From contig OX597829.1 of assembly GCA_951406725.2 (NCBI GenBank), positions 36,642,001 through 36,706,000 of the forward strand: 64,000 nucleotides of DNA, read 5' to 3'. Below, one piece after another: positions 8,330 to 59,555 of the stretch. Position 1 is the stretch's first letter. Each line of letters opens with the position of its first letter. A model generated the notes under the pieces. The model saw only the letters and a list, made by a program, of their open reading frames with translations, was not told where the DNA came from and did not search any database. The stretch is from Octopus vulgaris. Taxonomy: Eukaryota. The position numbers and the translations under genes were made by a program.

Positions 8330-9957
8330 AGTTCATTGCTCAACTGCACCAAGGTCTTGTTCACTTCAACATTGTCAAAACACCTTAAACTCATTGACAA
8401 ATTGTGAGCACAGCTTCTTCCACACACTATTCATAACTGTGCTCTTCATCTCATTCTACGCAGCTGCTATGTTCATTATGGCTTTGTAGATGTCATAACT
8501 TTTCCAAAAATCACGAACTGTGATGCTTTCGTCGATGTCAGTTGCAGATATTGCTTGGTGTAATATACGCTTCATATAATAGCGCTTAAAGCTGGCAATT
8601 ATTCCCTGGTCCATTGGTTGCAACAGCGAGGTAGTGTTAGAGGGAGGAAGGTAACTGTAACGTTGGGATGGAAATTTCCGATGTCTTTCGGGTGGCCAGG
8701 AGCGTTATATAAGACAAGCAGAATTTTTTTAAAAATCCCTTTAGCCTTACAGTACTTTTCTGCTTCAGGAACAAAATGATTGAAAAACCATTCTTCAAAA
8801 ATTATGACAGTGACCCAAACCTTTGAATTGACCATCCCTATTACAGGAAGAGATACCTTGGGTATGTTCTTAAGAATTTGGGGATTCAGCGCCTGACACG
8901 CAAGCAGCGGTTTTAGCTTGCATTCGCCTGCACAATTACCTCTCAACATTAAGGCCAAACGTTCTTTTGACACTTTGTAGCCAGGAATTCTTTTCTCTTC
9001 TTTTGATATGAAAGAGTGATCTGGTAATTTCTTCGAACATAGAAATCGGGTAGAAATCTATTATCTTCAATAATCTTCGCTAATATAGCAGGAAATTCCG
9101 CTGTAGCAACATTGTCAGCCGACGTGCTTTCACCTTGTTTTTTGCGGAAAGTGCAAATTCTGCCGCTGCTTAAACCTCATAAACCATCTCTGCCTTGCCT
9201 TATATTCTACGTCTTTCTCATCTGAATATTTCTTTTTCAAATCTTCAGACAAAGACAATGCTTTCTCCTGACTCTTTTCTTGCAAACGATTCTGCCATTC
9301 AGCCCAAAAGGCAAAAAGCTGCTCCATCTCTTCGTAGATTCGTCCTCTTTTCTTGTTGATGATGGTGTTTTTCATCCCAGGAACATCATCTTTCACATGT
9401 GCCATAATCCTTTCTCTATTGTGCACAATCGTTGATACAGTAGTACGGCTCATCCTAAACGATCGTGCAATAGCTACAATCTTTCACCCTCTTCATATAA
9501 TGTTATCACACCCACTTTATCTTCCAACAATATGGCTTTACGCTTACTATTTTCACTAGGATTCTTCTTCGGTGTCATGGGGCTAAAATGTAAATCACAA
9601 AAATAATTGTACAAAATTTTACAGCACTGTCGACGTGAAAACATCTGAACTAGTATACTTGTTCCAATTTGTATTACCGTTAACCTGTAACTTCTCATGT
9701 CTTTGTTTTTAAATGAATTTTAATCTTTCATGATACATATAGTATTTTAACATTAATTTTAATATGCTATAAAGATTATATTTCTATTGCATTTTTATTT
9801 ATTTTCCGGAGACGATTACGAACGTAACCAATCGATACAACTCGGAATTAACAGTACAGTATAGTATGAACGTTATTGCTATTTTTGCCAGGTTACGTAA
9901 ATTAATACTGTATTAAATATGACGTATCTTCAGAAATGAGGTAAGTCGAAAATACTT
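8330..9957 (-). mobile_element. Tigger/pogo-type DNA transposon with disrupted transposase (start codon near 9578)
   Basis: HTH regions KRKAILLEDKV, MSRTTVSTI and WFMRFKQR; DDE region KERLALML..CKLKPLL..KILLVLYNAPGHP..LLQPMDQGII. TIR-like 5' end near 9940-9957. Frameshifted and 3'-truncated. Confidence 0.92.
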
Positions 9958-9982: not shown

Positions 9983-10498
9983 CTAGCAGTATCGCCCGGC
10001 GTTGCTCGGGTTTGTAAGGGAAATAACTATATAAGCATTTTTAGAGAGTTACTTCCTTTATAGATGCCAATTCGGGCTTTCTTAGCCATTTCTGTTTTGG
10101 TGTCTTCAAGCCATGAAGTCGTTGTTCTAAAAGAACGCTGGTCTCCTTGACAACGCATTACGACGTTGATTTCCTTAAACTCCCTTCCCCACAGCTTCAC
10201 GAGGGAGGGAAGAAGGGGGAGAAGCAAACACAGGTGCAGGTGTTTGAGCGTGGATGCCAACTCCGCCGCCATTGACACACGAAAAATTATGCATTAAAAT
10301 GGAATAAAAAATGATGTTAGATTATTTTTAAAATCGTAGACTCATCGTAGACGCGCGCTAATAGCCAGACGGGCTCGATATTAATCACGACTATAAGATA
10401 CCCGAATTTGGTTAAACTGCACCGCAAAATGTGGGAGGAGTTAGGAATCTAAATCGTAGAAGACAGACACTCACACAACTACAGTTTTATATATATAG

Positions 10499-10499
<1 letters not shown>
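9983..10499 (-). mobile_element. Non-autonomous Helitron
   Basis: Minus strand starts TC and ends with hairpin cccgagcaacgccggg then CTAG. Inserted between A and T with no TSD. Second copy at 46598-46992. Confidence 0.88.
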
Positions 10500-22430: not shown

Positions 22431-22815
22431 TATTAATAGTTATCGGCGAGTTAATATGGCAGTCCATAAATATGGGACGAATGCTGCCGTTGATTAGCTC
22501 CAAGAGGCCATCGCCTCTAGCTAGCTATGTGACACACAAACCTGTGTCCATTATAACCTTCCAACAGGGGAGGTCAGCCACTTCCCCTTGTTGGCCAGGC
22601 ATCTGCAGACTAGTTTCAGGGTATTTGCCCTTTATCAATGCAGATCAGCCGAACCCAGCAGGCATCGCTACTGACCGTCAGTTCGAAGGTTATAATGGAC
22701 ACAGGTTTGTGTGTCACATAGCTAGCTAGAGGCGATGGCCTCTTGGAGCTAATCAACGGCAGCATTCGTCCTATATTTATTGACTGCCATATTAGCTTGG
22801 CGATAACTATTAATA
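22431..22815. mobile_element. Fold-back element with 131-bp inverted arms and a 123-bp spacer
   Basis: 22431-22561 pairs with 22685-22815, about 5 mismatches by eye. Confidence 0.9.
22601..22645 (-). ncRNA. Degenerate minimal hammerhead ribozyme
   Basis: Minus strand: atctgca TTGATAA aggg caaata ccct GAAAC ta GTC tgcagat. Stems are perfect; the core has two transitions relative to CTGATGA. Confidence 0.7.
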
Positions 22816-27722: not shown

Positions 27723-28018
27723 ATTGTTACCACTTACGTAATCACATGCGTAGATGTCCGCAACTGGCCAGTGTGATCGTCATAGCAAAATATAATTTGC
27801 TGAACTATACACGAGACGTCTCGTGTATAGATTACGCAAGTGGTAACAACGAAACTAATTCGTAGTTAATCTATATATTTTGTATCTTTTCATTTGGCTT
27901 GCTCGCTTACGTTTTGGTGTTTGCTAAATTTTCTTGAGAACATTTCTTTCTTAGTGGTAAGACCATAGGGGTCGACTTCTAGCATATTGGACGTTCACTT
28001 AGTGGTCATCCCTCTTAT
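27723..28018 (+). mobile_element. Fold-back copy of the HHR-bearing family at 46161-46440
   Basis: 27723-27820 matches 46332-46428 directly and 27830-28018 matches 46161-46345 in inverse. A 26-bp palindrome lies at the junction. Confidence 0.8.
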
Positions 28019-28024
28019 GTGTAT

Positions 28025-28082
<58 letters not shown>

Positions 28083-28538
28083 TTGTGCATATACATATAC
28101 ATATATGTATGTGTAAATATATTTGCATATATATATATGTGTGTGTGTGTGTGTATGGATATATATAAATTATAAATACTATTAATATATAAGTACAGAA
28201 GTATTATTTTCAATACAATAATATTATTTTCCAGAGAAATAGAGCATCATCAATGTGAAAGCCAATCAGTATTACGATAACAAACGTATTCGGAAAAGTT
28301 CGAAACTCGAGTATTAGGTTGTCCATTTCTCTGGTGTTCTTCCTAGAGGTAAGACGAATTTTTTAAAGTTCGACGCCCGCACACATCTTTGCCTCTATGC
28401 ATCCAGTTAAGCTTTACTTACCATCGTTCGGTTATCGACTGCTATTTCCAGCAAAAACGAGTACTTTGTTGTGCCACTATTTCCTACTTCTGTGTATATA
28501 TATATATATATATATATCCATACACATAGATATGTATG

Positions 28539-28600
<62 letters not shown>

Positions 28601-29754
28601 TATATATATATTTATTTATGTCTATACAGATAGACATATGTATGTATGTATATATATGTATGCATATATATATAATCACATACATATAAACATACATACA
28701 GTCACGCGCGAACGCCCATACACATACACATTTATACGTGTATGTATGTTTGTACGCATGTATGTATATATGCATATATATGTATAAATATATATATGTA
28801 TACATGTATACATATGTACATGCATTTATATGTGTGCGAATGTGTGTGTGTGTATACACCTGTAGATTAATTTAATTGCAGAGCCAAAAAGAAAAGAATG
28901 GAGTAGGATGCTATAATTATGAATATCTATATGCGTATATGCTTTTGGACATACATATATATGTTTGTAAGTGATTATCTGTAAATACATATATACACAC
29001 ATAAAATTTATTATAATGTAAAATGTAATTATATACGAATTCATTATTATTATATAAATCACCCCATCACAAAAAAAAAACAATTAAGTACTAACTAAAA
29101 CTTCTTTTAATTTAGAAAGGTGTTCGATAAAATACGAGATGTAAATGAAATTCAATTACATTTCATTCTAACGAAGGAGAATCACTCTAGACCTAAGTAT
29201 TATAAAGATGAAACTTTTCGAAAATTATGAATTATTATAATGAGAGCGATAATGAAGGTGAATGAGCTTTGAGAAGAAGGTAGAAAGTGGTAAGAGGTGA
29301 AAGAAAATGTAAGTGGATGAGGAAGAAAGAAGACTGGGAAATGTACTAAAATATGCTACATTAAAGTGAATAAAGGAAATGCGTGAGAGGAGAGAAATTA
29401 ATTTATCACCCAAATAGTATATCTATTTCTTAAAAGGGAGTTTAAAAGATAAAAGATTGATATGATTTATGTTTTGTCATTTTATTCTGTTTATTGGTTC
29501 AGTTTGTTTTTTATCGTTTTAATAAGATCATCAATCGTCAAAAGATGTTGATCATAGCTATCATGGTGATTATGATTTTACTGATGAAGATAAGTTTGTC
29601 AATGTCAACAGCCAATGGTAGTTTAATGGTGGCAGTTATAATAGCGTATTAGTATCGGTGTTTGTAATTTTGTAGAAATTGATTTCCTGATAGGAGTAGC
29701 TCACCTTGTTGTTATGGGTGTTGAAGAGTTTGTAATATATGTGACCTCTGAAGG

Positions 29755-30444
29755 TTTCGCTATTAATAAATTATGTAATTTTACTCACACAACATATCTG
29801 TAGCTATTCTGGACGGGTTCGGCTGAAGAGCTACAGATATGTTGTGTGAGTAAAATTACATAAATGCACTAAGCCACTTGGTGTTAAATGGTTATACTAT
29901 TAAATTAGTATCTAATTCTCTCACCCTTATTAGTTGATTGTAATTATACTACATTTAATTTTGGATGTAGTATCTGTTTCCGTGAATTTTGGCGGGCTGT
30001 GGCAGGGGCACTTGAATTATAACAGCGAATGCAATCGACTGAACCGCACGTGTGTTTATCGTTATGGTAAAATCTAGCGTGCAGTTGAGTAAATTGTATT
30101 CTGGACGGGTTCGGCTAAAGAGCTACAGATATGTTGTGTGAGTAAAATTACATAATTTATTAATAGCGAAACAATTGTCCTGAACTAATCTGCATTTTTG
30201 TTATTTTTATTTGCCCTGTTCGTTTGCGCTAGTAGTCGTACTAACTTTCATCGAAACAATTCTTTGTGGCTGAAACCTAGCGGATCTATTTTTAGTGCTA
30301 GAGTCGACCACATAGTGGTTACTCTCTCATATTTATATATAAAATTCATTGAATTCCGGGTTTTTATGCACTAAGCCACTTGGTGTTAAATGGATATACT
30401 ATTAAATTAGTATCTAATTCTCTCACCCTTATTAGTTGATTGTA
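29755..30444 (+). mobile_element. Partial-tandem plus inverted pseudo-LTR-like unit
   Basis: 29806-29863 repeats at 30098-30155, 29864-29942 repeats at 30366-30444, and 29755-29805 is the inverse of about 30121-30171. Confidence 0.85.
30109..30185 (+). ncRNA. Type I hammerhead ribozyme (G5>A in this copy)
   Basis: gttcgg CTAAAGA gcta...tagc GAAAC aatt GTC ctgaac. The upstream duplicate has intact CTGAAGA at 29823-29829. Confidence 0.8.
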
Positions 30445-30557
30445 TATATATATATATATATAAAAGAAAAGAAAATTTCTCTCAGATAATGTTTACTCCA
30501 GACAGCTCACGGAGGTTTGGAGGTAAATACAGAAAAATATCACAAGTACATAGATCG

Positions 30558-30620
30558 TTTGAGTACGTCAACGTTTCAAGATTAGCCAAATAAAATCAGC
30601 ATTTCTTTCGTCAGCTCAAA
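30558..30620 (-). ncRNA. Mirror copy of the hammerhead ribozyme in the left palindrome arm
   Basis: Exact reverse complement of 30647-30709. Confidence 0.85.
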
Positions 30621-30646
30621 ATTTCTTAATTTCCAAATTAAGAAAT

Positions 30647-30709
30647 TTTGAGCTGACGAAAGAAATGCTGATTTTATTTGGCTAATCTTGAAACGTTGAC
30701 GTACTCAAA
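30647..30709 (+). ncRNA. Type I hammerhead ribozyme, intact core
   Basis: tttgag CTGACGA aaga...tctt GAAAC gttgac GTA ctcaaa. Predicted cleavage after 30703. Confidence 0.85.
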
Positions 30710-30996
30710 CGATCTATGTACTTGTGATATTTTTCTGTATTTACCTCCAAACCTCCGTGAGCTGTCTGGAGTAAACATTATCTGAGAGAAATTTTCTTTT
30801 CTTTAAGTAGTAGAAATTGCTAAAAAAAATTTTTTTTTGGCTGCTATTTCTACTTAGTTCAGTATGTGGCAAAGTAATTTATTTTACTAAGCCCTAATTA
30901 TATAATGTAATATTTTGAATTCGCCTTAAATGGTCCTTTTACATACTGAACACTTGGTGAAATTGATTAATTAATTAATTTTACCCTCAATTGTTG

Positions 30997-35345: not shown

Positions 35346-35629
35346 TATACAATACGAAGAGCACGGTGCGATTGCAATAGATATTCGATTGGTTGAACGA
35401 TATTTCGACAACTAGCCTGTCTTTGTCGAGTTCTAAATGAAAAGTGATTACATAAAAATTAAAAATTATAGAAATTGAAATCCAAAATTTGAACGAGGAC
35501 AACCAGCGTTCCCACGTTGACGAAATGACATTATCAGTCATCAGTTTTTAAGTTTACAACTGGCAAAAAGAAAAAGAAAGAAAAAAAACGAAGAAAAGGG
35601 AAAAAAAGGAAAACGAACAATATTTAATC

Positions 35630-35975
35630 AAACAGTCAGTTTTGTGTAAATATAAAATTCTCCCGTCATTTTATTCATCCCTTCAGGGCGTGATCTTAAC
35701 TCGTAAGCATATTTCTCCCCGTGCATTTTGGGGAATGAAAGTGTAGCAGATTCAGAATATTTTCTGAGAATATGCACTTTCAAGTCTTTTTCAAAATTGC
35801 AGCCGTTTGATGTAAAATTTTTGGCAAGTTCTGTCGAACTATTGTTATTGTGCCCGACGTCATATTTGTGCCCATTGAATCTTTTGTTTAATTGTTCTGT
35901 TGTACCATCAACATATATCGAGTTGTGCTTGGTGCATTCTGCTGCATACACTAAATGGGAAACTCTACACGTGTT
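35630..35975 (-). mobile_element. PLE GIY-YIG endonuclease fragment
   Basis: TCRVSHLVYAAECTKHNSIYVDGTTEQLNKRFNGHK...PEGMN. Confidence 0.85.
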
Positions 35976-36299
35976 ACCTTCAAGGCGGTGCTCTAGCATG
36001 GCCACAGTCAAATGACTGAAACAAGTAAAAGAATAAAAGCAATAGCCTCACACGCATAAACACACATACAAGCACTCATAAATAGATACAAATACATATA
36101 TATTTCTTCGTATGCACAGCAAAGTTCCCAGGCATACACTATTAGAAATATTACTAATAAAATAATTGGAAATATGTACATAGACTGTTTGTTTTAATCG
36201 TTTATATATTGTTGCATAATTATAGAATTATATTTTGTAGAATATGTTAAAGATGATGTCAAAAAGAGGAGAAATAGAAAAAATAAATAAAACCTGATA

Positions 36300-37595: not shown

Positions 37596-37693
<98 letters not shown>

Positions 37694-37694
37694 C

Positions 37695-38280
37695 AACTTG
37701 AGTTGACAATCAGCAAAGTTTGCTTTAAAAGCCTTGAGATGTATTGAAAGATACAGATAAGGAAATAATTTTATTCTCAAATGCAGGTTAATACCATTGA
37801 TATAGCATGAACATGATAAACTATCCATATTTTGCAGATACATCTGTCGGCGGCTAGCCATGTGACTCAAACTCACATCTCTGTGATTACGCGTCAAGTG
37901 CTTTACCATTAAGCTAAACTGCATTTGAGAATAAAATTATTTCCTTTATCGGTATCTCTCAATACATCTCAACGCTTCTAAAGCAAGCTTTGTTGACTTT
38001 CAACGCGTGTTGTATTTAACGTGTGATAGCGTCTTATAAAGTTAAATTTATATATCCTAAATTTGCAGAAGAATTTGTCGTTGGGGCAGTTTAGCTTAAT
38101 GGTAAAGCGCTTGACGTGTAATTACAAGGATATGAGTTCGAGTCTCATGGCTGGTTGCCGACAGATTTTTCTGCAAAATATGGATAGTTTATCCTTTTCA
38201 TGCTATATTATTGGCATTATCCTGTGTTTGAGAATAAAATCATTTCCTTATTTGTATCTTTTTATACATCTCAACGCTAA
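37695..38280. mobile_element. Divergent pair of tRNA-headed repeats with an extra tail copy
   Basis: Plus copy 38087-38280 (tagcttaatggtaaagcg...gagttcgagtc), minus copy 37695-37922, tail duplicate 37921-38005. Confidence 0.8.
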
Positions 38281-43181: not shown

Positions 43182-43940
<759 letters not shown>

Positions 43941-44166
43941 ATATGAGTATAATTATAATTAGGCTTAGGCAAAAATTTTTCTTCACCACACATCGTGTTC
44001 GGTGTGTAGTGAAGCAAATTTTTTTACCTAACCCTAATTATAATTATACTCATAATTATAATAAATATTGTGTAAGTTTACCGATAATGGTCTTTTTAAC
44101 ATACCGAATACTACTTGGTGAAATTATTAATTATTAATAAATTAATTAATTAATTAATTTTACCCA

Positions 44167-44679
44167 GTGAAATACTGCATAATAAACAGTAAACGCCAAG
44201 AGAAAAATCTGAAAAAACAACTGACAAGAGCAAAATTCTCATCAGAGAATGAAACTGAATTCCTTGTAAAAGAATGTGGAGATAGTAGATGTGGGATCTT
44301 CAGTAACCACATTTACAAATATATAGAGGAAAACAGCCAAATAAAATTTAAGAGTGGACACACATTCAAAGCACATGCAAACATGAATTGCAAGATACAA
44401 AATTTAATATATTGCATAACCTGTCCCACATGCAAGGATAACTATATAGGTGAAACTGGCAATTCTTTATGCCAACGAACCAGAATTCACCGACAACATA
44501 TCCGACATGGAGAACTACAAAAAATTCCACTAAGTAAACAATTAGAAACATGTGGAGAAGGAAGATTCAAGATCTCCCCCTTCTATAAAGGCCCAAGAAA
44601 TGATACCTTCCTCAGAAAAAATATGAAACAACATTTCATATCAAAATTCTCCCCCCAAACTGATTGGCTGAAAATATGA
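44167..44679 (+). pseudogene. PLE GIY-YIG endonuclease domain (5'-truncated, open for 170 codons)
   Basis: NLKKQLTRAK, CGDSRCGI, NCKIQNLIYCITCPTCKDNYIGETGNSLCQRTRIHRQHI. Confidence 0.92.
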
Positions 44680-45343
44680 AAATTACATCAACTTCCTTAT
44701 AAACCCATCTGGAACCCTAAGATATATGCATATGTGTGTGTGCGTATGTATATACATAAATAGAGACATTCTTGAATCCAGATTTTCCAACCCATACCGG
44801 CATGGGAATCAAACATTGGACAATGATGATGATGATGATGATGATGATAAGTCCAGACAACTTTTTGAAAAATAACTTTCATTATTCCACATCAAAACAG
44901 AACCCCTTTAGAGTAACCACCTGGTCTTGCCATTTTTACAGACTAAGAATCAACTTGTCATCTTCTATTCAAAGAACTGACCAACTGTATAGATATAAAC
45001 ACATTTTTCCTTCCCTTCTTTCCTTCTCTTTTCCATTGACATTAAGAAAAAACACATTTTTTCACTTTGAAAACATTTTTCTTTCAGACCCCCTGGTGAG
45101 TTGGCTGAACCAAAGTAAGCATCTGTTCTAGCCACCTGCTTTAAAATATATATTGTTTTTCTTTATCTCTTGTTCAAAACATACACAGACACACACGCAT
45201 GCATAGACACACACAAACACACACAAACTGTCTCACTTTCTCCCTCCACTATCTCCCAATTCCTCACCCTCTTTTCCTACCCTTTACACTCCACATTACT
45301 CTTCTTTTCCCCTCTCTCTCTCCATCCCAACGCATTCGCTAAT

Positions 45344-45786
45344 ACTATAAAAAGAGACAAATCCCTTCACACAGTTCTAACAATTCGCGCAAGAGTCCAA
45401 CGGTCCCTTTTTGAAAGTTTTGGTTTTCTTCCGGAGTTTTGTTTCGCCGAGGAGGTTTTCGCTCTTTCTCAAAGGCTGTCATTACTTTCGAGACAGTACT
45501 TCTTGATACCAAACATTTCGGCTGTCTTCGTTACGCTAACCCCTGCCATGCGAGCACCAACAATTTGACCTCTTTGAAAGTCCTATAGATCTGTCATTTT
45601 AATGAATTTTAATTACCTTTTTCTGAGGATATCTAAAAAGAAACAGCAATTTTAACAAAACACATTAAGCAACATTAATAATAAATCCAAAAACATAAAA
45701 ATAAACAAGATTTTGGCGGTTTTATAGATATTTCAAAATTATGATGCTATGATGCTAGATGTTTCTATTATTTGGACCAACCCCTA
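45344..45786 (-). mobile_element. Tc1-like transposon 5' fragment
   Basis: TIR-like end at 45759-45786 followed by TA. MTDL*DFQRGQIVGARMAGVSVTKTAEMFG...SGRKPKLSKRDR. Confidence 0.88.
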
Positions 45787-46131: not shown

Positions 46132-46160
<29 letters not shown>

Positions 46161-46163
<3 letters not shown>

Positions 46164-46440
46164 AGAGGGATGACCACTAGGTGGACATCCAATATGCTAA
46201 ATGTAGACTCCATATGGTCTGACCACTAAGAAACAATTGTTCTGAAGAAAATTCGGCAAATGCCAGAACGTAAGCGAGCAAGACAAATGAAAAGATACAA
46301 AATATAATGATTAGTCACATACCAGGTTTCATTGTTACTATTTACATATTTACATACGTAAATGTCCGCAATTCATCAGTGCGACCGTCATAGAAAATAT
46401 AATTCGCAGAACTGTACATGAGACGTCCACACGAAAGAGA
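46161..46440 (-). mobile_element. Short non-coding HHR-bearing repeat between microsatellites
   Basis: Homologous to 27723-28018. Confidence 0.8.
46313..46386 (-). ncRNA. Type I hammerhead ribozyme, intact core
   Basis: Minus strand: ggtcgca CTGATGA attg...caat GAAAC ctg GTA tgtgact. 7-bp stem I with two G-U pairs. Confidence 0.85.
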
Positions 46441-46443
46441 ATA

Positions 46444-46506
<63 letters not shown>

Positions 46507-46597
46507 ATACAGAAGGGTATTGAAATACCACTTGCTGCGAACAGAGCTGTCGCTCCAAACTACAATTCACTGACAATAAAAATATTAGTAATACTTA

Positions 46598-46992
46598 TCT
46601 TTATATATAAAAGCCAAGTTGTGTGTCTGTCTCCTCCGATTTAGATTCCTAACTACTCCCACATTTTGCGGTGCAGTTTAACCAAATCCTGGTATCTTAT
46701 AATCGTGATTCATATCGAGCCCTTCTGGGTATTAGCGCGCGTCAACGATGAGTCTACGATTTTTTTAAAAAATTACCATCATTTTTTCCATTTTAATGCA
46801 TTTTTTCGCTATTATATAAGGGAAGTAACTCTCTAAAAATGCCTACGATGAGTCAACGATTTTTAAAAAAATTACCATCATTTTTTTCCATTTTTAATGC
46901 ATTATTTTGCTATTTTTTGGCTATAACTCTCTAAAAATGCTTATATAGTTATTTCCCTTACAAACCCGAGCAACGCCGGGTGATACTGCTAG
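46598..46992 (+). mobile_element. Non-autonomous Helitron
   Basis: a^TCttt...cccgagcaacgccgggtgatactgCTAG^t; homologous to 9983-10499. Confidence 0.9.
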
Positions 46993-47117
46993 TTTAATTT
47001 AAATTTATTAATAACTCACGTTATGTTCGTCTTTTGAATGAGGCAGGGCATTCAAATGTAAGAACGCACATGGTGTAATGTGAAGAATATTTCAGAAATA
47101 GCGTATTCTGTGTTAGG

Positions 47118-47176
47118 TCCAGCTGATGAGCTTAAGTATTTTTTAAATACACAAAGCGAAATCTATAGATCCTGGA
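47118..47176 (+). ncRNA. Type I hammerhead ribozyme, intact core
   Basis: tccag CTGATGA gctt...aagc GAA atctatagat C ctgga. Palindromic stem III, AUC cleavage triplet (C47171). Confidence 0.9.
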
Positions 47177-47504
47177 ATATACACATCCTTACTTATGTAT
47201 TCCATGCAAGGTAAGCCTGTCTCTGGTTTGTTTATCGCATTCACCGTGTGTATTTTTATAGTGGTTTAGAGCGACAGCTCTGTTCATAGCAAGTTGTATT
47301 TCAGTACCCTTCTGTATTTTATTTATATTTTACCTATAGATATCTAATCTTGCTAGCCACTTTATTATTAACATTATTTTAAATAATATTAGTGACACTT
47401 ATTAAATTTAAATATATATATATATATTTATATATGTAAAGGCACTTATATATGTGTGCAAGCTTGTGTCTATGTATATTTAAGAACTCTTATACGTATA
47501 AATC

Positions 47505-47843
47505 AACCCCAAGACTTATTCTTTGTAAGCCTAGTACTTATTCTATCGGTCTCTTTTGCCGAACCGCTATGTTACGGGGATGTAAACACACCAGCATCGG
47601 TTGTCAAGCGATGTTGGGAAGACAAACACAGACACATAAACATATACACACACGTACACACATACATATATATATATATACATACATACGACGGGCTTCT
47701 TTCAATTTCCGTCTACCAAATCCACTCGCAAGGCTTTGGTCGGCCCGAGTCTAGAGTAGAAGACACTTGCCCAAGGTACCACGCAGTGGGACTGAACCCG
47801 GAACCATGTGGTTGGTAAGCAAGCTACTTACCGCACAGCCACT
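47505..47843 (-). mobile_element. SINE family A
   Basis: Reverse complement of the 10598 copy, tail truncated. Confidence 0.9.
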
Positions 47844-47905: not shown

Positions 47906-48159
47906 ATGACAGATCTATAGGACTTTCAAAGAGGTCAAATTGTTGGTGCTCGCATGGCAGGGGTTAGCGTAACGAAGACAGCCGAAATGTTTGGTATCAA
48001 GAAGTAATATCTCGAAAGTAATGACAGCCTTTGAGAAAGAGCGAAAACCTCCTCGGCGAAACAAAACTCCGGAAGAAAACCAAAACTTTCAAAAAGGGAC
48101 CGTTGGACTCTTGCGCGAATTGTTAGAACTGTGTGAAGAGATTTGTCTCTTTTTATAGT
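47906..48159 (+). mobile_element. Inverted duplicate of the Tc1 fragment
   Basis: 254-bp inverse of 45344-45597 with about 3 mismatches. Confidence 0.92.
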
Positions 48160-48991: not shown

Positions 48992-49088
48992 CGTTTACAT
49001 ATATGTATATATATATATATAGTAATGGTAAGACAACGAAAGAAGGAAAGAGAACTTGATAATATGTAAACAGAGGAATTTATTTCTA

Positions 49089-49300
49089 ATATAATATGGG
49101 ACAATTATTCAGTTGCCATAATAAAACTCCGAGTTTCGGGTGTCGAGGCGGAAATCTGCACCGGCATCTCTTCAGTTATCCAGCAATTCCGATGGTCGGA
49201 TAACTGAAGAAATGGCGGCGTGGATTTCCACCCGACATCCGAAACTCTGAGTTTATAATGGCTACCGAATAATTGTCACATATTACATTTACAGATTTAC

Positions 49301-49344
<44 letters not shown>

Positions 49345-49437
49345 GTAATATAATGTGACAATTATTCGGTTGCTATGATAAAACTCCAGTTTCGGATGTC
49401 GGGGCGGAAACCTGCACCGGTATCTCTTTGGTTATCA
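49089..49437. ncRNA. Three alternating copies of an HHR-like unit (minus, plus, minus)
   Basis: Minus 49121-49179: ataa CTGAAGA gatg...c GAAAC tcgga GTT ttat. Plus copy 49200-49256. Degenerate minus copy 49378-49436. Confidence 0.7.
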
Positions 49438-50784
49438 AAGCAATTAAAATATGCTATGAAAATGACCGTTAAATAAAGGAAAAACCGAAGAGAGGCAATA
49501 CAAAGTAAAGGAGTAAGAAAGATCATAGCAATCGCTCGTGCGCGCATGTACATGCATACACATGCGCGCACGCACACCCACGTCTGTTCACTCAGACTCG
49601 CATGAAACACACATGCGCACCCACACATACGTCACATAGAGGCACACATATATATATGCAACCATGCATGTACACGTATACAAATCCACACACACACGCA
49701 CACACGTGCCCATACCCATACGCGCACAGATATATTCAAATACGCGCGCGCGCACACAGGTAATTATACGCGCACAATTATATTCAAATGCACGTCTAAA
49801 AAACATACATGCTATATGTGCATACGCTCACTTACAGTCGCGTGGACTCCCACGTAAATATGCAACCATACACATGTGCTTATACATGTACATATATATA
49901 TACCCGCGCACACGCACACACACATACACACGCACACACACATACACACGCACAAAAAAATTCATATACATGTTTATAAACGCACATTCACAAGAAAAAT
50001 GCAGGGTGGAAGGCCAAATACTGGAAAAAAGTGTAAAAATATATAAAGTAATAAAAATATAAAAATATATCTCTGTAAGTATGTAAAAAATATGTAAATA
50101 TATATATAAGAAATATATAAAAAGTATAGAGAGATAAAAAGCTTGTACGTGGACACAATATAAAGCAAGTTCTATCTTATCTTAGGAGTACCATAAACGT
50201 AACAAATATTTAGCCATATGTGGACTTGATCCAAAAAGTTCAGTTCTTGAATTTAGACATGTAGTGGGATCTAAGCTGCTTTTCCAGATGAGCCATCTTT
50301 CCATATCACGAAGACCGCATTTACCACTACTGTTCGTGTAAGGCTTACACTTGTCTAATATCTTCCAATGGATGTGCGGTAACTTACGGATTTTATAATG
50401 TTGGATTATTTATTCATTTTACAAATGAGAACATCAAAAACATACAAAATATTATATAAATCAATAGATAAGATAATAATACAAAACAGATTTTAAAAGT
50501 CATATTATAAGTTAATGAAATCCTAAAATTACTTCTTACAGCTGTTTCAGCCTATGAATTAATTGCATTGCAATTAAAAACATTTATGTATTAAGAATTT
50601 GGGTACTTTACCAACAGTATATTGGATAAATGATATCCCATAGAGCGTTACACCCATAATCCCTTACTTATCTTACTTTGTATTATATATATATATACAA
50701 GGATAATATTGTTTATAATAATATCAGTGGTTTCAGTAATTTTGACTGCAATTTTAGCATGCTGATACTACCAGCAGATCCGGT

Positions 50785-57222: not shown

Positions 57223-59555
57223 AAGCAAACAAGCTGCAACTGCAAGAACAACAACTCAAGCAATAACAACTCCAACAGAAAAACAAAAGAAAAACAGCTG
57301 CAAGAGCAACAACAGAACAACAACAAATAACATTACAACAATAAATGTTGCAATTACTGAAGTCATCAGAAAAAGTGTTCTCGCCAGACTATGTCGTGAA
57401 CTCCATAACAGAGTTTACTACGGAAGATATCAGAAAATCTTTGAGAAAGAATGTAAAGATTGGGACGGTGAGATATAAATGCGCTTAATCTTAAGAAAGC
57501 TGGCGGCAACAGAACATGAACGATACAGTAATTAGGTACTCCCAAGAAAACCTTCGGACATAACTTTAATGACATAATAGATATATTGTGTAAAATTTTT
57601 AGTGAAAAGAGCTCATTGTTCAACACATGTTGGAAATGTCTGAACATAGAGGAAAACAACGACGAGGACTACATCACATATGCTGGTAGAGTAAACAGGG
57701 AATGCGAGAAGTTTAAGCTGGATGAATTAATGTCAAATATGTTCAAATGCCTGATTTTTACACAGGGGTTTATTACCGAAAAGGACGCGGAAGTTAGAAC
57801 TAGAATTCTCGTAAATCTGGAACAAAACCAGGATGTAACCGTGCAACAAGTGTCAGAAGAATGTGAACGGATAGTCAAATTAAGACATGAAACAGAGGAA
57901 ATTGAACGTAAAGATTCTTTACAAGTAAAGCAAGTGTGAAATAGTCAGAAAAGAGATAAAGTGTTTTCTAAAAAAACAAGGCAAAAATCAGGAATTAAGC
58001 CCATGTTTTGCATATGGAGGTATACCCCTGAGGAAACATTGTCCATTTAAAAAAGTGGAGTGCTTTCGCTGTGGATATAGGACATATAAAGAAACATTGT
58101 AGAACGAAGAGGAAAAAACATCAGAGCAAAGGAAAAAGAATAAATACTATGTCACCGGAAGAAATTAGCAATATAACGATGAGAAAAATCGTGAAGGTGA
58201 TAATCAGAAATACAAGTGTTAAAATGCAGTTGGACACTGGTAGTGATATCACCATTATAAACGAAAAAACGTGGAAATATGTCGGTAAGCCGAAATTAAT
58301 TAAATCGAAAAAGGTAGCACATGGTGTTACGGAGAAAAAGATTATATTTTTTCGGTGAATTCATATGCAATGTAACATTTCGAGGTCAAACAAAAAAGGC
58401 GAAGATATATGTGTTAAAAAGTTCACTTAATTTATTCGGAACAGAGTGGATGGAACTATTCAAAGTATGTAATATACCCATAAGTGTTTTGTGTGAAAAT
58501 ATAGTCGGTTCAATCGAAGTTTCAAATGCAGCTGAGGGACTGAAACATAAAATTGCAGTAGAATAGTGTGGAACACCGGTATGTAAGCCAAAACGAAAAG
58601 AAAAATTGCCCACGATAAAAAGTAAACATTGTTCAAAAGTAGATGTTCTGTGGTCAAGAATACACATCGATTTCACTGGTCCTTTACTACTTAGTGGTTC
58701 ATACTACTTAGTGGTAGCTGATAGTTTCTCGAAATGGCCTGAAATTGTTAAATGTAAAAAACCAACACGAATTGTTTGCAAGATTTGGCATCTCAGACAA
58801 GAAAGTGTCTGACAATGAAACGTAATTTGTGTCTAGCAATTTTTTTAAATTTTGTGAAACATTCTCGGTAGAACATGTAACTACGGTGGCATACCATCCC
58901 AGATCTAATGGACAGGCAGAATGCTTCGTCGAAACCTCCAAAAGAGCCCTTAGAAAATCGAATAAGGAAGTCACGGATGAGGTAACTCTACAACAATTTT
59001 TAAGAGTGTACCGTGTGACACCAAATCTGAATACACCATCAGGTAGCTTACCAGCAGAGCTGATGTTTGTAAGGGAAGTAAAATCAATCTTTGATAATTT
59101 GCTACCTGGCAAGAAAAGAAAAAGTGCCAGGGAAGACATAGCAAGATTCTTTGAAGTTGGTGAAAAGGTGTATATGAAGGCATACAAGAATGGAAAGCAG
59201 AGTTGGGAAAATGGCGTGATTACCAAATGCATAGGTAAAATGATGTTTTGAATAAAAAGTAGAAAAGCATACGGAAGAGACACAGGAACCAACTTAAAAA
59301 GAGATTTGTGGAAAGCGAACTAAAGAAGTTGGAGGAACCGATAGAATGGTTGTACGATATGTTCCATGTACCCACGCCATTGCGTGTGAGGGAACCCAAG
59401 CGTACAAGTGAGAGGGGGAAAACACAGAGTTCCTGAAAATAGATGCCAAGTGCAAAAAATATCAAATTGTAAGAAAAACAAAAGAATCAAAAAAGGGAGT
59501 TGGGGTGAATAAAAATATTATTGCTAAATAAAATGATACTTCCTAAGAAAAACTT

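Follow-up and report, generated by a model that had tools for sequence, protein, structure and literature searches.

A canonical hammerhead repeat with Penelope-type insertion marks in Octopus vulgaris, a likely non-LTR retrozyme

A stretch of 64,000 nucleotides of Octopus vulgaris DNA (hereafter the window) carries a hammerhead ribozyme motif within a short repeat that lies between two TA microsatellites and is interrupted by a Helitron. This arrangement raises the question of what kind of element brought the ribozyme to this place and by which machinery it was copied and inserted. A first-pass annotation had proposed a retrozyme-like monomer of about 450 nt with an inverted arm and short direct termini, copied from a circular or multimeric RNA.

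Anatomy of the split unit and its surroundings

The window consists of repeat-rich animal DNA with about 35% G+C and contains 55 TA runs of at least six units. Both ends of the whole unit abut TA runs, which had been missed before, and 0.5% of the window positions lie within 3 nt of a run of this kind. The features of the locus are compiled in Table 1.

Table 1. Features of the octopus locus (positions in the window)
Feature	Position	Strand	Details
(TA)27 microsatellite	46448-46501	.	left half of likely target
Inverted truncated copy of 47251-47323	46502-46584	-	includes 11 nt missing from body; head-to-head with direct copy
5' terminal direct repeat, left part	46581-46597	+	equals 47385-47401
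Non-autonomous Helitron, 395 bp	46598-46992	+	TC...CTAG, A/T site, subterminal hairpin, internal ~100-bp duplication
5' terminal direct repeat, right part	46993-47004	+	equals 47402-47413
Body of 409-nt non-coding monomer	47005-47384	+	about 32% G+C
Predicted long RNA rod	47058-47259	+	47058-47101 pairs with 47217-47259; helix probabilities 0.87-1.0
Type I hammerhead	47109-47185	+	distal stem I 47109-47113/47181-47185, proximal stem I 47118-47122/47172-47176
Hammerhead core CUGAUGA	47123-47129		GAAA at 47158; stem II 47130-47133/47154-47157; stem III 47161-47163/47168-47170
Extra 6-bp hairpin within loop 2	47136-47150	+	
10-nt palindrome	47161-47170	+	stem III (3 bp) in one ribozyme, or 10-bp duplex between two
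Side hairpin on rod	47188-47215	+	
3' copy of terminal direct repeat	47385-47413	+	read as PLE-type tail
(TA)7 microsatellite	47413-47426	.	right half of likely target

The inverted arm described in the first-pass annotation was clearly recovered, as 46501-46560, aligned without gaps, agrees with the reverse of 47264-47323 at 54 of 60 positions, with a local score of 90 and scores of at most 24 elsewhere (2556 window tiles). The inverse is indeed diverged, but its end had been set too short: the arm continues across a gap to 46584 (corresponding to 47251), the body having lost 11 nt which the arm and the family retain. Arm and direct copy overlap by 4 nt (46581-46584). The outer end of the arm corresponds to an internal position of the unit (47323) and not to the 3' end of the unit, and the arm as a whole, previously counted as part of the unit, lies outside the monomer.

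Removal of the Helitron restores a junction (46581-46597 joined to 46993-47008) that is identical to 47385-47417 at 29 of 33 positions, as had been suggested. The stretch is AT-rich and the direct repeat is 29-33 bp long; its score of 49 was reached by none of 2000 shuffles (maximum 43), and the best unrelated tile of the 2556 scored 35. Subtraction of the 395-bp Helitron from the repeat offset of 804 gives a period of 409 nt, by which the earlier estimate of the monomer is corrected; about 440 nt corresponds to the monomer plus the redundancy. The unit length is 409 nt here and about 420 nt in the family, and the octopus copy is dispersed and spans 1.07 unit. A second copy of the family was not found within the 64-kb window. 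No open reading frame of more than 50 codons was present in a doubled 404-nt version of the monomer, on which the ORF and G+C figures were computed (longest stop-free stretch 50 codons), and no reverse transcriptase (RT) or GIY-YIG ORF was found in the unit.

The element splitting the unit proved to be the Helitron that had been annotated, with its TC and CTAG ends set between A and T and its subterminal hairpin. A second copy with the same ends is located near 9983-10499, and both window copies display the canonical features as defined in PMC8969392, namely a 5' TC, a 3' CTRR, a subterminal hairpin and insertion between A and T without duplication. The Helitron arrived later than the unit, splitting the 29-33-bp direct repeat.

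Several other elements of the window are associated with microsatellites. Directly left of (TA)27, a second hammerhead-like, microsatellite-flanked family occupies 46160-46446 on the minus strand, with a core at 46379 for which no Rfam match was obtained; a relative with its own inverted arm lies at 27723-28138. The (TA)27 run has been hit by insertions repeatedly. Small direct-plus-inverted units beside microsatellites were likewise observed at 49078-49445 (with hammerhead-like cores on both strands), 29754-30450, 37689-38278 and 22431-22815. A 342-bp palindrome, 99.4% perfect and situated beside a TA run at 30463-30804, holds hammerhead-like cores at 30653 (plus strand) and 30614 (minus strand) and looks like a very young head-to-head insertion of the Penelope-like element (PLE) type. 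The whole 2.3-kb cluster is enclosed by an inverted pair (45344-45597 and 47906-48159; 254 bp, 98.8% identical) of a frameshifted coding fragment, which is far younger than the contents and which we take to resemble the N-terminus of a Tc1-type transposase. A SINE at about 47660-47840 is presumably of an octopus type. Remnants of a DDE_1 transposase (8459-9057, minus strand), a weak aspartyl-protease match of the LTR-element type (58032-58355, plus strand) and a tRNA-like match above the Rfam gathering score (38085-38156, plus strand) were also recorded.

Remnants of coding PLEs were detected as well, since two of 100 open frames of the window match GIY-YIG, both below the curated cutoff. One belongs to a plus-strand segment (43835-44680) in which (TA)50 is followed by a palindrome (43928-44068) and then by the GIY-YIG remnant (44158-44676; Pfam E 8e-4) with its CxxC and paired His motifs; the segment probably represents a coding PLE that was truncated and inserted with a matching anatomy, and it shares no DNA similarity with the hammerhead unit. 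The other (35631-36047, minus strand; E 3e-3) is followed at about 35390-35430 by what appears by eye to be a PLE-end hammerhead of the minimal type, in decayed form. Sequence similarity of the unit to a coding PLE was not detected among ten window units, none of which exceeded its shuffles.

Ribozyme and predicted fold

The hammerhead of the unit is canonical, in agreement with the first-pass annotation: the core is intact, stem II is closed by G47130-C47157 (G10.1-C11.1), and stem III contains the 10-nt palindrome. The CUGANGA, GAAA and UH elements and three stems are present and the structure is open at stem I, as in type I hammerheads; distal and proximal stem I, separated by an internal loop, have 5 bp each, stem II has 4 bp and stem III 3 bp, with the predicted cut site after C47171. 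In addition to the internal loop of stem I, there are unpaired A residues next to the hairpin in loop 2. When both window strands were scanned with a descriptor, nine rows at five core positions were obtained, and in the row at 47123 stems I, II and III measure 5, 4 and 4 by the count of the scan, again with the cut after C47171. When the 441 bases from 46980 to 47420 were analysed with cmscan, the sole match was to Rfam Hammerhead_HH9 (RF02275) at 47106-47194, with 36.5 bits (E 1e-7), below the gathering score of 52; among 150 of the 224 Rfam rows for the window, the hammerhead of the unit is the only one. HH9 resides in a conserved amniote intron. The octopus ribozyme shares with it the two-part stem I, the 4-bp stem II beginning with GCU, the 3-bp stem III and an identical core, and differs from it in the added hairpin of loop 2 and in sitting in a mobile repeat. 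In collections that are ill suited to animal repeats, the hammerhead pattern had no match (viral_contigs and metagenome_contigs), nor did a 22-nt family motif (metagenome_contigs).

The intact core was rejected as a sign of selection on this copy, since at 5-7% decay a 13-nt core survives in roughly 40-50% of cases. According to a model without tertiary contacts or Mg, the active fold lies 3.5 kcal/mol above the ensemble, and two palindromes are predicted to pair as a 10-bp duplex of -11.2 kcal/mol. Dimer-assisted cleavage has been described for animal hammerheads with a palindromic stem III (PMC4209133, PMC7229834), and the modelled energies of the active fold and of the palindrome duplex fit such a mode of cleavage.

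The ribozyme is predicted to be placed at the tip of the long rod. The fold of the monomer has a z-score of -4.3 to -5.0; because the window is rich in palindromes and 12 of its 80 control tiles were as low, the z-score alone was rejected as strong evidence. The circular fold was similarly dismissed as proof of a circle, the linear fold being equally stable (-104.4 kcal/mol, against -98.8 kcal/mol for the circular one) and the pairs across the monomer junction weak (probability 0.17-0.26). The conserved hairpin that directly follows the ribozyme includes a motif resembling a 5' splice site (47209-47215); introns have been described in PLE ends (PMC4209133).

The repeat family in sequencing-run contigs

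A search of sequencing runs retrieved 24 runs from six studies, nine of which contain part of the stretch; none of these nine is labelled as RNA, and they provide no evidence on expression. The contigs of four of the 24 runs were aligned to 46975-47500 at 80% likeness, with 47398-47500 skipped as a repeat. Three DNA or unlabelled runs yielded 112, 209 and 185 family contigs, mostly 80-95% alike, and the counts of contigs with another letter at site 47084 (21, 37 and 30 in the three runs) indicate at least tens of distinct copies. Near-identical pieces (no difference in 213 nt in run X2; 3 in 133 and 4 in 236 in run X1) represent the locus or its allele, in runs carrying other organism labels. 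The RNA-labelled run X12 contained five short family contigs, none of them more than 95% alike and none with a kept joint, which are at most a hint of transcription of the family.

Among the best 15 of 17 joints, nine change strand (at eight body positions), four go back and two skip. The decisive one is the go-back joint of contig 15 of X2, in which 31 letters lead up to 47385, 16 tail-like letters follow, and the sequence then resumes at 46993 and runs through to 47386. This contig has 56 other letters over 394 (86% alike), a period of 393 + 16 = 409 and no Helitron, and begins further upstream than the copy at the octopus locus. Two further joints go back from 47376 to 47046 and from 47377 to 47047, both with unassigned letters in between. 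Contigs beginning at 46975 had fewer than 31 letters on the Helitron side and were excluded as bridges of the Helitron junction. The listed loose ends before 47046 and behind 47378 look by eye like family sequence and not like coding DNA. The earlier claim of a retrozyme-like monomer with terminal redundancy is thereby supported, as the tail-to-start junction and its period recur in a diverged copy elsewhere and the listed loose ends resemble the family rather than a coding PLE. Two ribozymes in tandem were not seen in any listed contig piece, the contigs being short, and the octopus locus has one.

The family carries about 11 extra letters near 47260, and these are retained in the arm; furthermore, the arm holds the family letter at 47295 and 47304, at both of which the body has changed. 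As the arm shares family letters exactly where the body changed, arm and body stem from one family sequence and have decayed separately. A subfamily of seven contigs in three runs has a ribozyme (47101-47186) too divergent to be aligned, with changed stems I and III between conserved flanks, and in the loose-end rows before 47186 of three runs its stem III is different yet still palindromic. The ribozyme is more variable than the rod carrying it.

With respect to the predicted fold, three family variants restore pairs in the rod, and each of the five variants that fall on a mismatch bordering a helix creates a Watson-Crick pair (1 in 243, at a chance of one third per variant). A compensatory change from U-A to G-C at 47140/47146, in the loop 2 hairpin, occurs at equal depths in X1, X2 and X12. 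Among the 25 variants at predicted paired sites that are listed (40 of 210 rows), 11 break the pair; for some of these the partner change perhaps lies outside the listed rows, or the family folds differently. A p of 1e-5 for the 14 of 25 paired-site variants that still pair was set aside, as its null ignores transition bias. The family-majority letters 47339 A, 47341 G and 47342 G would create a TATA-like motif (47335-47342) about 45 nt before the tail, where the promoter of a tandem unit would sit; it is decayed in the octopus-locus copy and constitutes a weak lead.

Mode of insertion and comparison with known systems

PLEs are described as inserting in partial tandems that frequently have an inverted, 5'-truncated copy on the 5' side and a tail of 30-40 bp, with a bias for (TA)n (Craig 2021, PMC8557442). 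Head-to-head inverted repeats overlapping a direct repeat, and mobilization in trans, have been reported as well (Arkhipova 2013, PMC3846280), and a PLE protein was found to cut and extend both strands of AT-rich DNA and to start at two internal RNA sites bounding the tail, with hammerhead cleavage dispensable in vitro (Frangieh 2024, PMC11167929). The octopus locus bears an inverted, 5'-truncated copy beside its 5' end, the inversions varying in other copies, and (TA)n or AT-rich target sequence at both ends. Its terminal redundancy of 29-33 bp compares with the published PLE tail of 30-40 bp, the 3' ends of other copies falling within the skipped region 47398-47500. This published insertion signature explains the arm and the short redundancy better than a circle-specific origin would. 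Since the unit bears the marks of a PLE but no ORF, and its tail re-enters its own start after 409 nt, it appears to be non-autonomous and to have been copied in trans from a template exceeding unit length. The redundancy supports a more-than-unit template, which a circle and a tandem transcript would both provide; the first-pass proposal of a circular or multimeric template stands to this extent, and with weak junction pairs and an equally stable linear fold the two forms are indistinguishable.

From the anatomy of the locus, its many family copies, the recurrence of the tail-to-start junction, the inversions at varying places and the pair-restoring variants, we regard the unit at 46502-47413 as quite probably a decayed single copy of a multi-copy, non-coding repeat of 409-420 nt, likely a non-LTR retrozyme, which was pasted into (TA)n by a Penelope-like RT/endonuclease from an RNA of more than unit length and was split later by the Helitron. 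The proposed course of events would be as follows. Source loci with at least two units would be transcribed and their hammerheads cut, probably aided by pairing of the stem III palindromes between ribozymes, to give monomers that are possibly ligated to circles. A PLE protein acting in trans would then nick (TA)n DNA and begin reverse transcription where the tail ends (about 47413), and one whole unit plus 29 nt would be copied across the head-to-tail junction. Second priming from the other target strand, at an AT-rich site near 47323 or trimmed back to it, would produce the inverted arm, joined via the 4-nt overlap; the copy would subsequently decay and take in the Helitron. As a single ribozyme cannot cut out a monomer, the locus is a daughter and not a source; it is a dead end that cannot release a monomer or circle by itself, and taken alone it represents an old and dead member of an element type already known.

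The explanation competing most closely with a trans-copied retrozyme, and still an unlikely one, holds that the unit arose as a by-product when a coding PLE was gutted or truncated: it would be the ribozyme-bearing pLTR end of an abundant autonomous element, its ORF deleted or never copied, and would not propagate itself. Type I hammerheads also occur in PLE ends, whose insertions leave an arm, a tail and a target of the same kind, and a coding parent could hide behind the poorly covered tail and start (depth lowest at 47011-47046 and 47389-47406) or among 215 loose-end rows beyond those listed. However, recurrence of the junction in a copy that is 86% alike argues that the short unit itself was amplified, and the listed loose ends around 47046 and 47378 resemble the family. 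Moreover, metazoan PLE ends mostly have minimal hammerheads (PMC4209133), whereas the octopus ribozyme is canonical in its G10.1-C11.1 pair, in the lack of an extra base before stem II and in its two-part stem I.

We consider it improbable that the repeat spread at the DNA level like a satellite, by unequal exchange, circular DNA or repair-templated inversion, with the ribozyme carried along as a passenger that came from the end of a PLE. A 2026 preprint, in which cleavage was observed for one of nine elements, proposes that such ends are amplified locally in tandem (10.64898/2026.07.22.740005), and palindromes and microsatellites are abundant in the window; such a spread is nevertheless difficult to reconcile with inversion breakpoints that vary between copies, with the position of both ends in TA runs and with variants that preserve RNA pairing, including changes from G-U to Watson-Crick pairs and compensatory changes. 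A MITE with terminal inverted repeats (46502-46584 and 47251-47323) and a captured hammerhead has very little probability and is largely refuted by the varying inversion points of other copies: the arms do show 90% complementarity across 60 nt, and TA precedes the left arm, but family sequence carries on beyond the right arm for 90 nt up to the tail, so that this arm is internal, and the direct repeat is left unexplained.

The interest of the unit lies in the footprints of a PLE on a canonical-hammerhead retrozyme. We lean slightly towards a family of this kind that spreads as dispersed near-monomers, each with the full Penelope footprint of a head-to-head inversion remade per insertion, a tail and (TA)n targeting. 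If so, it would furnish direct structural evidence for a PLE protein that reverse-transcribes and integrates animal retrozyme RNAs, circular or multimeric, in trans. The autonomous element that moves animal retrozymes is still argued only indirectly in the literature, the link to PLEs having been drawn so far from co-occurrence and pLTR phylogeny, and a family with PLE-specific insertion ends would back this link from the DNA itself. A natural template of 410 nt would also become available for in vitro PLE assays, with the RNA tail (about 47385-47413) as the place where the PLE enzyme would start.

Compared with insertions of the Neptune, Naiad and Poseidon PLEs, the octopus unit shares the inverted, truncated copy that is joined head-to-head through a short overlap, the AT-rich or (TA)n target and a hammerhead near the end, and its terminal redundancy may correspond to their 30-40-bp tail. 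Unlike endonuclease-bearing PLEs, it has no RT or GIY-YIG ORF, a period of 409 nt rather than kilobases, a canonical instead of a minimal ribozyme and an arm whose outer end is internal. Non-autonomous Chlamys derivatives such as MRC1 are also short and non-coding, with pLTRs and head-to-tail insertions via the PLE machinery; those are found in green algae, and most Chlamys elements are reported to be without canonical hammerheads (Craig 2021, PMC8557442).

The closest counterparts are the animal non-LTR retrozymes, low-GC tandem units with canonical type I hammerheads. Coral, mussel (350-390 bp) and axolotl express them as circles, and PLEs were put forward as strong candidates for the role of partner (Cervera and de la Pena 2020, PMC7229834). 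Retrozymes are defined by tandem arrays with at least two ribozymes (PMC7229834; 10.64898/2026.07.22.740005). The preprint of Li, Clavereau and Pollet (2026) reports monomer copies, homology to known elements for 24 of 57 frog families (21 of 22 of those elements being PLEs) and cleavage in one of nine tested elements; it adds co-occurrence and pLTR phylogeny and leaves the mechanism open (10.64898/2026.07.22.740005). In a search confined to mainly open-access papers, we found neither cephalopod retrozymes nor retrozyme insertions with an inverted arm and tail. PLEs and Helitrons are listed in an octopus repeat annotation of 2026, where the word 'hammerhead' does not occur (PMC13282606), nor do 'inverted' and 'microsatellite' in the main text of the 2020 retrozyme paper (PMC7229834). 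The octopus unit is likely an animal retrozyme, a kind of element already known. At 409 nt and about 32% G+C, with a canonical type I hammerhead, it lies within the non-coding, low-GC range of about 150-450 bp, and its multi-copy family has head-to-tail junctions (three long go-back joints, one of the exact period); tandem arrays with two ribozymes and a circular RNA would be predicted for it. It resembles the animal retrozymes in its canonical ribozyme, its self-paired, low-GC unit of a few hundred bases, its multiple copies, the occurrence of monomer copies and the proposed partnership with PLEs, and differs from them in being a dispersed copy of 1.07 unit with an inverted arm, a putative tail, a (TA)n target and an extra hairpin in loop 2.
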